64,000 bases of DNA from an uncultured Planctomycetales bacterium. Its GTDB lineage: Bacteria; Planctomycetota; Phycisphaerae; UBA1845; PWPN01. Position 1 is the stretch's first letter. Every line of letters starts with the position of its first letter. Location of the stretch: the NCBI GenBank assembly GCA_964401335.1, contig CAYNYK010000002.1:67630-131629 (forward strand). The letters run 5' to 3'. The position numbers and the translations under genes are program-made. Of the stretch, positions 18,974 to 24,617 are shown piece by piece. The notes under the pieces were generated by a model. The model was not told the DNA's origin. It did not search any database and saw only the letters and a program-made list of their open reading frames with translations.

Positions 18974-19981
18974 TCAGATATGCTTTTTGAGTTTGGCGAG
19001 AGATTTGTCGGTAACGAATTCGACGCCGATTTCGGTTTCGTTTTCGTCAATCGGTTTCATGCGTCTGACTTGCGCAGGTACCCACAACATGCTGCCCGAT
19101 TGGCCGATTCCAAGTATGATCGTCGTTTCCGGTCGAATCAGTAAGCCGCCGGTCATCTCCCGCTCGATCGGATCTTCCAAGGCATGGTTTTTTATCCGCA
19201 GACAGGCCCCCCCCTCCGACACGTTGGTGAGCCGGGCATTGATCCGTTTGCGCCCGTAATTGGTTTTCACGATTAGTTGCACATGTTGGTGCATACTTTT
19301 CCGCGGATACCGTCGCCGGGATTTTTCCTTTATCTCCGGCTCGACCTCCGGCACTTCGCCGACCAGGTTTTTTATTCTTTTCCGTAACGAGGTTCCCAGT
19401 ATCCCCCAAGAGAGGCGGGCAATATCGTAGGCCCGGACAACCTTATAGATTTCCTCGGCGATCGCCCTGAGTGATTGCATCTCCCGCAAGGAAGACTGAA
19501 TCGCGGTGGTGATTTCCTGCGAAGGGTCTTTGGTCCTTTCAACGTCAAACGTCCCCTTTTGAAATGCGCCGATCTTGATGCCCCCTACCGTTTCGGTGCA
19601 ATGAGCCACACAAATACAACCTGACCAAGAGACATCGTTGACGCTGATACTGGCCCGTAACCAGGTTCCCGGACTGATATAGATTTGGGAAATGAAACAT
19701 AGACCGTCCTTGGAAATGTTGTAAAGCGGATATTCGACAGGCGGGCCTACGCCTTTGTCGGTCAATACTTGAATTGTCACGGACATACTGAAAGAATAGC
19801 GTGGCGCATATCGCTTCCCCAGCCAGCGATCCTTCGGCAGGTCATCGCGGTTGTCAAGTGTCAAAAGCAAACCATCCAATGATTCCACTTGCTGTTTTAA
19901 CGATTCCGATGACATGCATGCCTCTTCGTTCGGTAGTTCCATGGCGACGGTTTCACGTTTCCCTTGGCACGTACGATGCAC
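18974..19981 (-). CDS. Tandem PilZ-domain protein (two c-di-GMP-binding PilZ domains)
   Basis: Domain 1 has RYAPR...NISKDG. Domain 2 has RRYPR...NVSEGG. Both fit RxxxR plus (D/N)xSxxG. Confidence 0.8.
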   Translation of the reverse strand: MHRTCQGKRETVAMELPNEEACMSSESLKQQVESLDGLLLTLDNRDDLPKDRWLGKRYAPRYSFSMSVTIQVLTDKGVGPPVEYPLYNISKDGLCFISQIYISPGTWLRASISVNDVSWSGCICVAHCTETVGGIKIGAFQKGTFDVERTKDPSQEITTAIQSSLREMQSLRAIAEEIYKVVRAYDIARLSWGILGTSLRKRIKNLVGEVPEVEPEIKEKSRRRYPRKSMHQHVQLIVKTNYGRKRINARLTNVSEGGACLRIKNHALEDPIEREMTGGLLIRPETTIILGIGQSGSMLWVPAQVRRMKPIDENETEIGVEFVTDKSLAKLKKHI

Positions 19982-20212
19982 GGTTCGACGGTCGTCATCC
20001 CGATATTCGTATCAACGCGGTCCTTTGCGTAACGATCATAAGCGTACTCCCCTCACACTACGGTATCGGCTATTTCCCACCCGCGCTCAGGTATGGCCGG
20101 GAGATGATCTTCCATGATGCCCGCAGCTTCCGCGGCCGCCGCGAGCTTAGTAACGGTTACCCCGAATCGGCCGATAAATAAGAGGCGGATAATTACTCCA
20201 CTTCCCCCAAGG

Positions 20213-20698
20213 TCATTTTTGAGCAGATCCCATTTTTTCGGCGAAGGCTAGATCATGGGAAAGAATAGGGGTGGATCCCGCCGACTTCAGCAGGATTCCG
20301 ACCTCGTGGTAACCCCGGCCGACATATCGGCAAAAACGCACCTGACCATATAAAAAAAGTGCGGGGTGGGTCGGGACATTAATCTCCACCTCCAACGGTT
20401 CATCAATCAAGAAACAACGACGCACCACAAGCCCCAGACCTCTTTGAGAAATATTTCTGGTCCGCCCGGGAAAAACAGTGATCGTGCCTTCGCCCGCCAA
20501 GAAAAAACGGACTTTACAGTCCACCCGAAACCGCTTACGTTTTTGATTCCGCTGAGCGGACGAATCCCGGTTCGCTTTCGCAAGATCATGCTGTTGGGAG
20601 CAAATATCCATATCATGAATAAGCTTGGCCAGGGTCGCTTCGTCACGAATAAACCGAGTTAGAATCGTATGATCGATCTGTGGTACTTGAACAGCCAT
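20213..20698 (-). CDS. PilZ-domain protein
   Basis: RKRFR...NISQRG. I prefer the ATG at 20698 (GGAGAAAGGGA RBS, MAVQVPQIDH...) to the track start at 20899. Paralogous to the next gene. Confidence 0.75.
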   Translation of the reverse strand: MAVQVPQIDHTILTRFIRDEATLAKLIHDMDICSQQHDLAKANRDSSAQRNQKRKRFRVDCKVRFFLAGEGTITVFPGRTRNISQRGLGLVVRRCFLIDEPLEVEINVPTHPALFLYGQVRFCRYVGRGYHEVGILLKSAGSTPILSHDLAFAEKMGSAQK

Positions 20699-20971
20699 TC
20701 CCTTTCTCCGTTTGATTAAACTGGCCCTTCTTCCATTTCGGCTTGCAAGTAAGCCCACATTACCTATGAAATCACGACTCATCCGGATACTCGACTCGCC
20801 GCCTCCAATCGGGCTTGCCAGGGGCGATAACTTTCGCGCACGAACATCAAGATCGGATTCACTCACGATATGGGCAGGCCGGCTCGAGATGCCGGACAAA
20901 TCAGTAGCGGCGAAAAGAATCGAGCATCGCGAAATGGACCCATAACCGAATGGCGAGGATTCGCGCCCGAA

Positions 20972-21421
20972 TCAGGATCGAATCGTCGAAAACTCGTGCA
21001 ATTGCTCGGAAAGGTGGGATTTTTGGGCCATCACCTTCATTTCCGCGCCGGTCTCGTAAAATCCTTTCGCTATGTAACGGCAAAAACAGACCGTTCCGGT
21101 AATATAGGTGATCGGCCGACCCGGCAGCTCGACCTCCAACTCGACCGGCTCATGAATTGAAAACATTCTTTTGGACATGAAGGAGAAGCCGCCCCGTGAG
21201 AGATTCCGTGTACGGCCGGTAATATCCAGAACCTGATGCTGTCCGGGAGAAAAGAATCGAATCGTGCAAATCACGCGGAAAGGCTGCCGTCGGCAGTGTC
21301 TTTCCTCAGCCTTGGTTGCCGAGAGCCCGGAGGTTTGCCGTTCGGCCCAATCATCCAATTCGTTCAGAATGGCGTCTAATAACTGTTTGCTATGCTCAAT
21401 GTTCAAAGCGGGCTTCCTCAA
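20972..21421 (-). CDS. PilZ-domain protein
   Basis: RQPFR...NLSRGG. TTG start. The C-terminal FCRY(I/V)xxGxxExG block is shared with 20213-20698. Confidence 0.75.
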   Translation of the reverse strand: MRKPALNIEHSKQLLDAILNELDDWAERQTSGLSATKAEERHCRRQPFRVICTIRFFSPGQHQVLDITGRTRNLSRGGFSFMSKRMFSIHEPVELEVELPGRPITYITGTVCFCRYIAKGFYETGAEMKVMAQKSHLSEQLHEFSTIRS

Positions 21422-21727
21422 GAGGATACAACTTTCCGCGGAACACTACTTGTTCAAAATCGGCCATCAAGAAGGGTCTGTTTACTAAATTTATGTTGAT
21501 TGACCCTCGAAAAACCTTTGGCCATCAGGTGTTGTGGAAAATGGGTTAAATTCCCTGGAAGGGTATGGCCAATGAACATTCCTGATCGTCCGCGCCCCCG
21601 GAAAAGATCAACCTTACGATTCACTTTGCCTGGAGAATATCCGCGGGGGGCCTGGGGGCCGATTTGCATTCCGCCGCGATGATGTTAACTTGTTGTCCAT
21701 GGCAGAGGGCATTTCCGGTCACGCTTT

Positions 21728-22474
21728 ATGACCATGGTAAGGAGTACTATTATGGTTTCCGTTTATCAGAAGTTCGTCGTCAACGCCCTGCTTGCGGGAC
21801 TGATGCTTTGCGGCTGTCAAAGCAGCCAATCATCCATCCAGATTCGTGTCCCTCTCGACCGGCAGTATGTTGTTAACGAGCAAGCGGATCGTCCCATAAA
21901 GGTAAGTCTACCGGGCGACCAGCCTTTTAACATCCATATCAAGCAAAGCAGCCAAAATCGTGGGGCTGACGGTCGAGCAGAGAGCAAATCGGATGCCGAC
22001 GCCGCCGGTCAAGCCTTCGGTTTCGCGGAAGTTAACAAAGGAGGAAGCGCCGCGGCGGAGTTCACCATCGGACATCGCATCGCCAACCAGACCGAAAATC
22101 CCCAAGATCTGGCCATCGAACTCGATTTCCAATGGGTGCAATCTCTGCATACATCAGCCGAACCCGAAGCCAAAACGCTGGCCCGTGCCGAGCTGGCCAT
22201 ATCGGTTATCAGCGCCAAGGGAAAGACCCTGGCCACCATCCAAGTGCTGAAAACCGACAGCAATCAGGCCCGAGCGTCGGCTGAACTGCAAGACCACCGT
22301 GGGTTCTCCGTTTCTCTTGAGCCCAAAATGCATTACGATATCGTTCTGACCGGAAAAGTTGAGGCCAGGAGCGCGGCTGGACAGGAAGCCGAGGCCCGGT
22401 TGGAGGTGAAAAATCTCGGCATCAACCTGAGTTTTACCTCCGCGTCCCAGGAGACCACCCGGGCCGGACCATGA
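21728..22474 (+). CDS. Hypothetical lipoprotein
   Basis: Signal peptide with the lipobox-like sequence LMLCGCQSS. No recognisable domain. Lies 40 nt upstream of the FHA-ATPase gene on the same strand. Confidence 0.6.
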   Translation: MTMVRSTIMVSVYQKFVVNALLAGLMLCGCQSSQSSIQIRVPLDRQYVVNEQADRPIKVSLPGDQPFNIHIKQSSQNRGADGRAESKSDADAAGQAFGFAEVNKGGSAAAEFTIGHRIANQTENPQDLAIELDFQWVQSLHTSAEPEAKTLARAELAISVISAKGKTLATIQVLKTDSNQARASAELQDHRGFSVSLEPKMHYDIVLTGKVEARSAAGQEAEARLEVKNLGINLSFTSASQETTRAGP

Positions 22475-22513: not shown

Positions 22514-24235
22514 ATGGCGGTAATTCAGATTCTTAACGAACAGGGGGCAAAGGTCGTTACCCTGCCGAACGGTCCGGCGATCATCGGCCGTTCCAGCGAC
22601 AATGATGTGGTCTTGGACGACAAGCTTGCCAGCCGAAAACATTGTTCGCTCGAGCCGGTCAACGGCGGGTTCATCCTTCGCGACCTCGGTTCGCGAAACG
22701 GCACGGGTATCCAGGGCAAACCCGTCAAGGAAGCCCGGCTCAAATACGGCGAGACGTTCACCATCGGTAAAACCGTCCTCCGCGTTTTTGAACACTCCGC
22801 CCCGAATATCGAGATTCTCGACTCCGCCGAAACGATCGTCGAGGAAATGGGCGACGACGAAGAGGCCGAGGCCCTCGAAGCCCTGGTGGCCGAGGCCGAG
22901 GAGGAAGAGGAACCCCTCGTTGAACAGGTCAATGTTTCCCAGGATGAAATCCTGGCCAAGGCCCGGCGCGATTTGAACAGCCTGCGTTCGGCCGGCGAAG
23001 ATCCCGGTTTCGGCCTGGAGCAGGTCGCGCTTTTCGATCACCAGGGTAAACCGGTACATACCAGCGACAAGGACGACAGTTCCTCCGAGGCCGTCCGCAC
23101 GCTGCGCCTGCTCTACTACGGAGCCTTCCGCACCCGGGCCACCGACCTGCATTTCGACCCAGTCGAGGAAGGCTGCCAGGTCCGGTTTCGGGTGGACGGT
23201 AAAATGATCTCCGTCGTCCTGCTGCCCGAACAGCTCGGCCGGGCCCTGCTCGGCGTGGTCAAGATTCTGTCGGAATTGGACATCGCCGGACGGCAGGGTA
23301 TCCAGGACGGCAGCTTCGTGGTCAGTTGCAACCGCCGCGTCGACAACCGCGTGTCCCTCACGCCTTCCATGCACGGGGAGAAACTGGTCATCCGCGTTCT
23401 GGACTCGGCCACCCTCCCCACCCGGCTGGACAAACTCGGCATGCCCCGCAACATGCTCAAATCCATCACCTCCCTATGCAAAATGGACGCGGGGATGATC
23501 ATCGTCAGCGGGCCGACCGGCAGCGGAAAAACCACTACGCTCTATACCGCCCTGCGAACCATCGACTCGCGTTCGCGTAATGTGGTCACCATCGAGGATC
23601 CCATCGAGTACCATCTGGCCGGCATTACGCAAATCCAGGTCAACGCCAAAAAAGGCCTCGATTTCGCCCCTATCCTAAAATCTGTTTTGCGACAAGACCC
23701 CGATGTGATTCTAGTCGGCGAGATGCGCGACCGCGAAACCGCCCAGACCGCCCTGCAGGCGGCCATGACCGGCCACCTGGTCTTTTCCACCCTCCACGCC
23801 CGCGACACCATCGGCTCAATCTATCGTCTCCTGGACCTCGGCGTTGAAAACTACATGATCGCCAACGCCGTCTCCATGTGCCTTGCCCAGCGGCTGATCC
23901 GCCTGCTCTGCGGTGAATGTAAAAAGGCCTACAAGCCCAAGCCCAGCCAGATCGCCCGCATGCGCGTCGACGCCCGCACCCTGCCGACGCTCTACGCCCC
24001 CACCGGTTGCCAGCGCTGCATGGGCGTCGGCTTCTGGGGTCGGGCGGCCATTTTCGAACTGTTGAGTTTCAACGACAAACTTCGCGACGCCCTCATCACC
24101 ACCACCACGATCAAGGACATCCGCGACGCCGCCGGCGAGTGGTCGTTTCAGACCCTGCTCGAGAGCGGCTATCAGAAAGTCCTCGAAGGCCTCACCAGTC
24201 TCGAGGAAGTCGAACGCGTCGCCACCCGTGAATAA
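22514..24235 (+). CDS. FHA-domain-fused GspE/PilB-family secretion ATPase
   Basis: N-terminal FHA (IIGRSSDNDVVLDDKLASRKHCSLE...LRDLGSRNGT) and an acidic linker. Walker A GPTGSGKTTT and Walker B ILVGEMRD. Tetracysteine CGEC...CQRC. Confidence 0.9.
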   Translation: MAVIQILNEQGAKVVTLPNGPAIIGRSSDNDVVLDDKLASRKHCSLEPVNGGFILRDLGSRNGTGIQGKPVKEARLKYGETFTIGKTVLRVFEHSAPNIEILDSAETIVEEMGDDEEAEALEALVAEAEEEEEPLVEQVNVSQDEILAKARRDLNSLRSAGEDPGFGLEQVALFDHQGKPVHTSDKDDSSSEAVRTLRLLYYGAFRTRATDLHFDPVEEGCQVRFRVDGKMISVVLLPEQLGRALLGVVKILSELDIAGRQGIQDGSFVVSCNRRVDNRVSLTPSMHGEKLVIRVLDSATLPTRLDKLGMPRNMLKSITSLCKMDAGMIIVSGPTGSGKTTTLYTALRTIDSRSRNVVTIEDPIEYHLAGITQIQVNAKKGLDFAPILKSVLRQDPDVILVGEMRDRETAQTALQAAMTGHLVFSTLHARDTIGSIYRLLDLGVENYMIANAVSMCLAQRLIRLLCGECKKAYKPKPSQIARMRVDARTLPTLYAPTGCQRCMGVGFWGRAAIFELLSFNDKLRDALITTTTIKDIRDAAGEWSFQTLLESGYQKVLEGLTSLEEVERVATRE

Positions 24236-24617
24236 CGCAAACGCGACCCCCGCGACTTTTGCGTCTTACCGTCCGGCTCGTCCAAGGGAGACTTTGGCGT
24301 ATAAAGCACGCATCCTGGCCGGCAAGCTTAAGCGGATGTTAGGGCGGTCTACGGTGGTGGTGGTCAGCGGCGCCCCGCAGGTTGGCAAGAGCACGCTGTT
24401 GAAGTACGAATTGCCGGGTTGGGATACCGTGGTATTTGATCCCGCATTGGATATGGGTAATGCGCGACAGGATCCTGACCTGTTCCTGGACAACCACCCA
24501 GCTTCGTTGATTCTCGATGAAATCCGATACGCTCCGGAATTGGTGACGGCCCTCAAACGACGCGTTTTATCTATTGCGACAGTGAAGATACTGCCAGGTT
24601 CGCAACTATTACGATAG
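24228..24617 (+). pseudogene. Truncated AAA-ATPase (DUF4143-type) remnant
   Basis: 129 aa with P-loop SGAPQVGKSTLL and LILDEIRYAPEL, ending abruptly at GSQLLR. Family members as I recall them are about 400 aa. GTG start overlaps the upstream stop. Confidence 0.55.

Follow-up and report, generated by a model that had tools for sequence, protein, structure and literature searches.

Introduction

Receptors for the second messenger cyclic di-GMP (c-di-GMP) that use the PilZ fold include single-barrel and two-barrel proteins. MapZ/PA4608 and PA0012 of Pseudomonas aeruginosa have a single six-strand barrel with an RxxxR motif before strand 1, a (D/N)xSxxG motif at the junction of strands 2 and 3 and a C-terminal helix. 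Most known two-barrel proteins have lost c-di-GMP binding in the N-terminal barrel (bioRxiv 10.1101/814665), and a PilZ-PilZ architecture with both motif sets has already been described, planctomycetes included (Galperin and Chou, bioRxiv 10.1101/814665). For motor ATPases of the GspE/PilB family, direct c-di-GMP input is provided by MshEN domains (PMC5013675), and within the PilB-PilZ-FimX assembly of Xanthomonas citri a PilZ-fold protein docks on the PilB ATPase (PMC8389850). Here we describe three consecutive PilZ genes at positions 18974–21421 of a 64,000-nucleotide stretch (the window) of contig CAYNYK010000002.1 from an uncultured Planctomycetales bacterium of the Phycisphaerae (Planctomycetota). 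They encode a two-domain PilZ-PilZ protein (gene 1) and two single-domain paralogs, PilZ2 and PilZ3, of a family here called sPilZ. The array lies divergent from genes for a lipoprotein and for a GspE/PilB-type ATPase with an N-terminal FHA domain.

To our knowledge, hardly any work has addressed c-di-GMP signaling in Planctomycetota, and for the majority of stand-alone PilZ proteins no target is known. PilZ genes often occur in tandem, this genome included. The proteins encoded here are lineage-specific additions to a well-known receptor superfamily, and the architecture of the two-domain protein is not new. Potentially new is only that a stand-alone PilZ family recurs together with a lipoprotein and an FHA-type GspE ATPase, and this pairing gives the locus a concrete match of receptor (sPilZ) and candidate effector. 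The three proteins are most likely cytoplasmic PilZ c-di-GMP receptors, with sPilZ as a possible regulator of the lipoprotein and ATPase. The reading that we favor, tentatively and at slightly less than even probability, is that sPilZ receptors would bind c-di-GMP and signal by contact to the lipoprotein/ATPase module, the two-domain protein being a separate receptor. It draws on observed domain identity, motif conservation, fold, paralogy, synteny and diguanylate cyclase genes. If true, it would add a second route, besides MshEN, for c-di-GMP control of GspE-family motors. If the pairing fails, the locus is a cluster of ordinary PilZ paralogs.

Results and Discussion

Motifs and fold of the sPilZ proteins

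PilZ2 (gene 2; 20213–20698, minus strand) encodes a single-domain helix-PilZ-helix protein of 161 residues, identified by Pfam, AlphaFold2 (AF2) modeling and Foldseek. PilZ3 (gene 3; 20972–21406, minus strand), the second sPilZ paralog, has 144 residues when read from the TTG at 21406 and was identified by Pfam, paralogy and orthologs. At 42.1 bits (PilZ2) and 28.7 bits (PilZ3), both exceed the cut-off of 22.5 bits for Pfam PF07238 (PilZ). The alignment of 26 family members places an arginine ladder in PilZ2, R50-x3-R54-x3-R58 (20525–20551, minus strand), which contains RNQKR and RKRFR, and a (D/N)xSxxG motif, N82-I-S-Q-R-G87 (NISQRG; 20438–20455, minus strand). The corresponding elements of PilZ3, seen in its sequence and in the PilZ2/PilZ3 alignment, are the ladder RHCRRQPFR, which includes RQPFR (21275–21301, minus strand), and NLSRGG (21188–21205, minus strand). 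Across the 26 sPilZ members R50, R54, T80, R81, N82 and G87 never vary, and at least 90% have R58 and S84. The ladder permits two overlapping RxxxR readings in the single-domain family. The Pfam match of PilZ2 begins at residue 52, aligned to profile position 1, which fits R54/R58 as the RxxxR pair, the one given in the original prediction.

The AF2 model of PilZ2, built on the 26-sequence alignment, reached a mean predicted local distance difference test score (pLDDT) of 83.5 and consists of a helix (residues 11–42), a six-strand barrel and a short C-terminal helix. A Foldseek search of the PDB with this model returned the BcsA PilZ domain, VCA0042, PA0012, YcgR, MotI, MapZ and MrkH, all with probability 1.0, and the matched structures include solved c-di-GMP-bound PilZ domains. 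RxxxR lies just ahead of the first barrel strand in both AF2 models (PilZ2 and the two-domain protein), and the motifs occupy canonical structural positions. By sequence, both PilZ profiles gave no better than chance-level matches among PDB chains. Beyond what MapZ/PA4608 and PA0012 have, sPilZ shows conservation of an N-terminal helix of ~30 residues (LLDELD), of R50 as third arginine and of the strand pair FCRY...G..E.G. Nothing in the PDB resembles it detectably in sequence.

All four motif pairs listed in the original prediction for this DNA (RYAPR/NISKDG, RRYPR/NVSEGG, RKRFR/NISQRG and RQPFR/NLSRGG) are present and conserved in orthologs. The profile scoring that it proposed as a check placed three of the four domains over the Pfam cut-off and left the N-terminal domain of gene 1 below it. 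The PilZ assignment accordingly combines a Pfam score above the cut-off in three of four domains, RxxxR and (D/N)xSxxG in all four, and a six-strand fold in the model. PilZ domains of the Xanthomonas type have lost the RxxxR loop and form an incomplete barrel, whereas here the motifs are intact and the modeled barrel is complete. Judged from sequence, all three proteins are most likely genuine motif-intact c-di-GMP receptors, and the sPilZ ladder together with the TRN-x-S-x-x-G motif would most likely bind c-di-GMP canonically. The same genome carries five GGDEF (diguanylate cyclase) genes, which indicates that it makes c-di-GMP.

The two-domain PilZ-PilZ protein

Gene 1 (18974–19915, minus strand) encodes a PilZ-PilZ protein of 313 residues, recognized by Pfam, its AF2 model and Foldseek. 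Its C-terminal domain scores 46.8 bits against PF07238. The N-terminal domain, scanned alone, scores 15.4 bits (E 0.024), and its profile gave a weak hhalign match to the sPilZ family (probability 20%, E 0.001) with both motifs in register. In the N-terminal domain these motifs are R35-Y-A-P-R39 (RYAPR, residues 35–39; 19799–19813, minus strand) and N66-I-S-K-D-G71 (NISKDG, 66–71; 19703–19720, minus strand), both placed by sequence, homologs and the AF2 model. Sequence and homologs place R201-R-Y-P-R205 (RRYPR, 201–205; 19301–19315, minus strand) and N231-V-S-E-G-G236 (NVSEGG, 231–236; 19208–19225, minus strand) in the C-terminal domain. Conservation was read from 7 homologs with 29–61% identity: P38, S68, G71, R201, R205, V232, S233, E234 and G236 are invariant in 7/7, and R35 and R39 are each present in 6/7.

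Modeled from a 7-sequence alignment, the protein forms two barrels, at residues ~40–120 and ~210–300, joined by a helical linker (~135–186) of low confidence. Mean pLDDT is 61, with 72–85 in most of the N-terminal barrel and 51–82 in the C-terminal one; a helix at 135–168, also of low pLDDT, comes after the first barrel. RYAPR sits just ahead of strand 44–52, and NISKDG at the junction of strands 60–67 and 71–76. Both barrels are recognized by Foldseek, since the two-barrel structures among its top matches (VCA0042, MotI, MrkH, PlzA, PP4397 and YcgR) align over 279–336 columns.

This architecture, two barrels that both carry c-di-GMP motifs and a helix after the N-terminal domain, is that of the PilZ-PilZ tandem class. 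It resembles Bll4394 and Blr5568 of Bradyrhizobium and SMc00999 of Sinorhizobium, where each of two barrels has c-di-GMP motifs (bioRxiv 10.1101/814665). Unlike in those proteins, the barrels of gene 1 are ~90 residues apart, separated by the helical linker, and the N-terminal one fails the Pfam cut-off. In VCA0042, MotI, MrkH, PlzA, PP4397 and YcgR the c-di-GMP motifs of the N-terminal barrel have been lost. By retaining RxxxR and (D/N)xSxxG there, gene 1 departs from the YcgR-like xPilZ-PilZ type, and Pfam scans of the two-domain protein reported no PilZN-type family.

The low score of the N-terminal barrel raises the question of whether some of the four domains are degenerate, having lost c-di-GMP binding to become protein-interaction modules like the Xanthomonas-type PilZ. 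Apart from this barrel, with its weak profile match to sPilZ and its counterparts that have lost binding in most known two-barrel proteins, the candidate would be the fast-evolving PilZ3. It has the lowest score of the Pfam-passing domains, and the branch that it shares with its same-genus ortholog is long (1.92). We give this explanation little weight: both motifs persist in all four domains and in their orthologs, they stand at canonical positions in the models, and PilZ-PilZ proteins with both motif sets are a described class.

Two further features of the N-terminal barrel were noted. It holds a second (D/N)xSxxG-like string, DVSWSG (residues 94–99; 19619–19636), with W97, S98 and G99 invariant, followed by an invariant block H105-C-T-E-T-V-G-G112 (19580–19603).

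Extent and history of the sPilZ family

Over 104 residues PilZ2 and PilZ3 share 38% identity (E 3e-27). They are paralogs, as had been proposed from the shared blocks GRTRN(I/L)S, EP(L/V)E and FCRY, all three of which were confirmed. Same-genus orthologs of PilZ3 show 66% identity. Searched with the family profile, a set of 1.84 billion representative proteins yielded 26 clusters at E <1e-30 and 161 at <1e-10; most matches have 140–180 residues and are covered over the full helix-barrel-helix length. All close relatives with a named genome record (21/21) come from metagenome-assembled genomes (MAGs) of Phycisphaerae or Planctomycetota. By these sequence relationships sPilZ is a lineage-specific family, so far from Phycisphaerae MAGs. 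Distant relatives of the domain occur in HDOD-GGDEF-PilZ, GGDEF-PilZ and PilZ-HEAT fusions, and the fusions to HDOD-GGDEF and GGDEF tie the family to c-di-GMP signaling.

In a tree of the paralogs, a check that the original prediction had proposed, PilZ2 and PilZ3 are not sisters. PilZ3 and its same-genus ortholog form the long branch mentioned above, and PilZ2 is placed, with weak support (92/86), beside the downstream copy of a genome from another genus (G019). Approximately unbiased (AU) tests left standing both a within-genus clade, as expected from duplication there (p 0.18), and one that unites all downstream copies (p 0.32). The phylogeny is thus compatible with a within-genus duplication as well as with an old tandem pair followed by losses. 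A recent PilZ2/PilZ3 duplication was not adopted, the tree placing the two apart and the AU tests favoring neither history. A relative in the same genus (G002) has a single sPilZ gene at this locus, the ortholog of PilZ3, and the two-domain gene comes next to it downstream, so that PilZ2 would be an extra or retained copy.

The divergent lipoprotein and ATPase genes

The array was predicted to lie divergent from an ATPase operon, and it does. The first gene (21728–22474, plus strand) encodes a lipoprotein of 248 residues and of unknown family, with a G-C lipobox at C30; among its 10 orthologs C30 is invariant and G29 is present in at least 90%. Neither the single sequence nor a 10-sequence profile matched a family in Pfam, NCBIfam or PDB sequences. 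The second gene (22514–24235, plus strand) encodes a GspE/PilB-type ATPase in which Pfam identifies T2SSE (373 bits, residues 194–568) and FHA (63.6 bits, residues 23–85). The FHA domain and an acidic linker stand where the usual N-terminal domain, MshEN or T2SSE_N, would be. MshEN matches in the genome fall in three other ATPase genes, paralogs of this one, and none in the FHA-ATPase. No T2SSF platform gene was found on the contig of the ATPase; those of the genome are on contigs C32, C78, C17 and C56. The one on C32 (21052–22026) has no T2SSE ATPase match on its contig and could be the missing partner of an unlinked ATPase, the FHA-type one included. Overlapping the stop codon of the FHA-ATPase is a 129-residue AAA_14 P-loop fragment (24228–24617), which we take to be a remnant, full-length proteins of this type presumably being much longer.

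Conservation of the neighborhood

The sPilZ profile, the lipoprotein and the ATPase served as queries against 35 genomes, representing 16 genera of the same bacterial family, and loci were inspected; a hit of >150 bits was taken as a true sPilZ. The family is present in 22 of the 35 genomes. In 14 of these 22, spread over 7 of the 16 genera, sPilZ is divergent from the lipoprotein and/or ATPase gene on the same contig. The distance is usually a few hundred bases, and 1.4–3 kb in two cases with inserted genes. Two or three further sPilZ genomes have contig ends compatible with adjacency. Identity across the syntenic loci is 33–48% for sPilZ and 32–44% for the lipoprotein. Adjacency outlasts the loss of either partner. 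Where the lipoprotein is lost (G006 and G012), sPilZ is directly divergent from the ATPase gene; where the ATPase is lost (G005, G020 and G014), a peptidase-like gene follows the lipoprotein. Wherever a close ATPase ortholog (at least 60% identity) co-occurs with the lipoprotein, the two adjoin. Every sPilZ genome (22/22) has the lipoprotein or the ATPase, and all three components are missing from the 4 genomes of genus g13.

Some of these loci carry other genes. The replacement for the FHA-ATPase in G020 (L013:11622–12995) and G014 (L021:7494–8879) is 457–461 residues long and, by eye, presumably M20/ArgE-like. In a Phycisphaerae MAG, probably G046, two genes inserted at L028:3224–5505 separate the lipoprotein from sPilZ by 3 kb; by eye they resemble ergothioneine-synthesis genes, an EgtD-like methyltransferase and an EgtB-like protein.

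A proposed contact model for sPilZ and its competitors

The usual genomic partner of sPilZ is a divergent lipoprotein gene, in many cases with an FHA-GspE ATPase gene behind it, and a link between the family and this pair is a reasonable but unproven proposal from gene order. In the model that we tentatively favor, sPilZ would bind c-di-GMP at its arginine ladder and N-x-S-x-x-G turn and would then hand the signal on through contact with proteins of the lipoprotein/ATPase module, for example by docking on the ATPase. The conserved N-terminal helix with its LLDELD motif is a candidate docking or dimerization element. The FHA-GspE ATPase is the best candidate partner because its divergent synteny with sPilZ recurs, because three ATPase paralogs carry MshEN while it does not, and because a PilZ-fold protein docks on the PilB ATPase of X. 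citri (PMC8389850). The two-domain protein, with two potentially functional sites, would have joined the array in this genus alone and probably has another target.

Several observations weigh against this model. The opposite flank, DUF763, nnrD and LarB, consists of housekeeping genes with no evident c-di-GMP link and yet is kept beside sPilZ in at least 8 loci, about equally conserved, so that gene order may persist by inheritance alone and synteny by itself is no proof of a functional link. The components are also separable. G021 keeps sPilZ with DUF763-nnrD and has the lipoprotein-ATPase pair elsewhere, and the three genes are scattered in G010, G043 and G044. Genera g6 and g11 and part of g5 have the lipoprotein-ATPase pair without sPilZ, and sPilZ with the lipoprotein but no ATPase also occurs. 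Counted by genus, the rule that sPilZ always comes with lipoprotein or ATPase does not reach significance, since just one genus lacks both. Among the fused sPilZ-domain relatives checked, no PilZ-ATPase fusion was found. Within the array, the intergenic gaps of 256–296 bp argue against an operon, and the two-domain gene adjoins the other PilZ genes only in this genus.

These points lend themselves to a rival account, in which the three genes encode independent c-di-GMP adaptors with unrelated targets, brought together by tandem duplication of one PilZ gene and a genus-specific relocation of the PilZ-PilZ gene, and in which the lipoprotein/ATPase operon is their neighbor through inherited gene order that has no bearing on function. 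The about equally conserved housekeeping flank, the occurrence of sPilZ, lipoprotein and ATPase in all pairwise presence/absence combinations, the location of the two-domain gene elsewhere in other genera, the large spacers and, on contig C48, three more PilZ genes in a row all speak for it. It explains less well why a divergent layout with a short shared intergenic region was kept in 7 genera while sPilZ diverged to 33–48% identity, why that layout survives deletion of either partner, and why all three components are jointly absent in g13. We regard independent adaptors as a serious possibility, with a probability appreciably below even.

The original prediction had gone further and read the array as one dedicated three-gene output module. 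That view is not supported, in light of the genus-restricted position of the two-domain gene, the wide spacers, the single sPilZ gene of G002 and the separability of the components. Its expectation of co-occurrence with the ATPase was borne out in part: the divergent arrangement recurs in 14 genomes of 7 genera, but the components also occur apart and the genus-level pattern falls short of significance.

The divergent arrangement is also that of a regulator and its target, which suggests a comparison with MrkH of Klebsiella pneumoniae, a PilZ-fold receptor that, like sPilZ, is encoded beside a possible target operon and that matches both of our models. MrkH binds DNA and controls the adjacent surface-structure operon. 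By analogy, sPilZ would be a c-di-GMP-dependent transcription factor acting on the shared intergenic region to control the lipoprotein-ATPase operon, its own gene or both. The sPilZ proteins are basic (pI mostly 8.4–10.1), MrkH structures are among the Foldseek matches, and parts of the intergenic region are conserved within the genus. MrkH, however, has two barrels, the N-terminal one motif-less, and sPilZ has one. The proteins encoded here have no evident DNA-binding element, sPilZ lacks a recognizable DNA-binding domain, and the conserved part of its N-terminal helix (LLDELD) is acidic. The c-di-GMP-binding arginines would make the proteins basic in any case, and sPilZ is retained where the operon lies elsewhere (G021 and G010). 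A MrkH-like role is therefore very unlikely in our estimate.

A bolder version of the contact model would make the sPilZ proteins trans-acting c-di-GMP sensors of a new GspE-family motor, in which MshEN has been swapped for a phosphothreonine-reading FHA domain and a dedicated lipoprotein replaces the linked platform/pilin/secretin set. Such a motor would integrate second-messenger and Ser/Thr-kinase signals. In MshE-type ATPases the receptor lies within the ATPase chain (PMC5013675), whereas here the c-di-GMP input would come in trans from a PilZ protein. The X. citri PilB-PilZ-FimX complex (PMC8389850) is a precedent for a small PilZ-fold protein acting as adaptor on a GspE/PilB-family ATPase. 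The Xanthomonas PilZ, however, is without c-di-GMP motifs, senses via FimX and binds PilB at ND0-ND1. The sPilZ motifs are intact, and the ATPase of this locus has the FHA domain and acidic linker in place of ND0-ND1, with no pilus genes nearby, unlike the X. citri PilB system. We consider this version unlikely.

Gene starts, spacers and intergenic regions

An open reading frame (ORF) analysis of the window gave three minus-strand ORFs within 18974–21421, each with a non-coding spacer after it. All three had been predicted; the starts of gene 1 and gene 3, formerly set at 19981 and 21421, were moved to 19915 and 21406. The most likely start of gene 1 is the ATG at 19915, which follows GAAGAGG and gives a product equal to the stored gene call P0005 (313 residues); the in-frame GTG at 19981 is less likely. 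PilZ2 starts with the ATG at 20698, preceded by GGAGAAAGGGA. For PilZ3 the TTG at 21406 is most likely, judged from the GAGGAAG ribosome-binding site that precedes it and from two same-genus orthologs that begin at the equivalent TTG. Translation from the TTG at 21421 would give 149 residues.

With these starts the spacers between the PilZ genes are 296 and 273 bp, and the divergent intergenic region between PilZ3 and the lipoprotein gene (21407–21727, unstranded) is 321 bp. Spacers of these lengths suggest that the three PilZ genes are probably transcribed separately. An Rfam search (E up to 1) of the spacers, the divergent region included, found no c-di-GMP riboswitch or other known RNA. Promoter and terminator scans gave sites no commoner than in shuffled sequence, and the divergent region showed no sigma-70-like consensus site.

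The alignment of the three same-genus genomes shows conserved blocks at both ends of the divergent region, 21640–21727 and 21407–21500. They may be promoter, operator or leader elements. Protein identity within the genus is 58–77% for the PilZ genes and the lipoprotein (18974–22474) and 89–97% for nnrD, DUF763 and the ATPase, so the former evolve much faster.

The guanine plus cytosine (G+C) fraction of the PilZ array is 0.50–0.52 versus 0.58–0.63 in the flanks, a deficit of about 10 points. Together with a nearby toxin-antitoxin pair and the ATPase fragment, this low G+C hinted at recent horizontal acquisition; in view of the synteny of these genes across genera, we rejected this as the main explanation.

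Other PilZ genes in the genome and relatives of gene 1

The 4.8-Mb genome has 9 PilZ matches, 3 of them within 2.5 kb at this locus; the clustering is not due to chance. Nor are tandem PilZ genes special to this locus, since a second run of three occurs at C48:16282–18646. Its ORFs of 262, 278 and 248 residues have overlapping stop and start codons. Two of the genes are above the Pfam PilZ cut-off, and the middle one has RRAYRR and NISKAG by eye; the proteins look like YcgR-type two-domain proteins.

Orthologs of the two-domain gene in three other genera (G021, G009 and G014; L050:4252–5439, L052:6186–7574 and L053:6586–7806) adjoin a REC+ParA/MinD gene of the TadZ/CpaE type. In two genomes both genes point the same way, ~125 bp apart, and in the third they are divergent. 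In the window's own genome the closest homolog (29% identity) sits on contig C56, just upstream of a gene for a Tad-type ATPase. Another stand-alone PilZ gene (156 residues, 44.5 bits) is found at C110:139–3469, where 1.7 kb and an ORF of opposite orientation separate it from a PilT-like ATPase gene.

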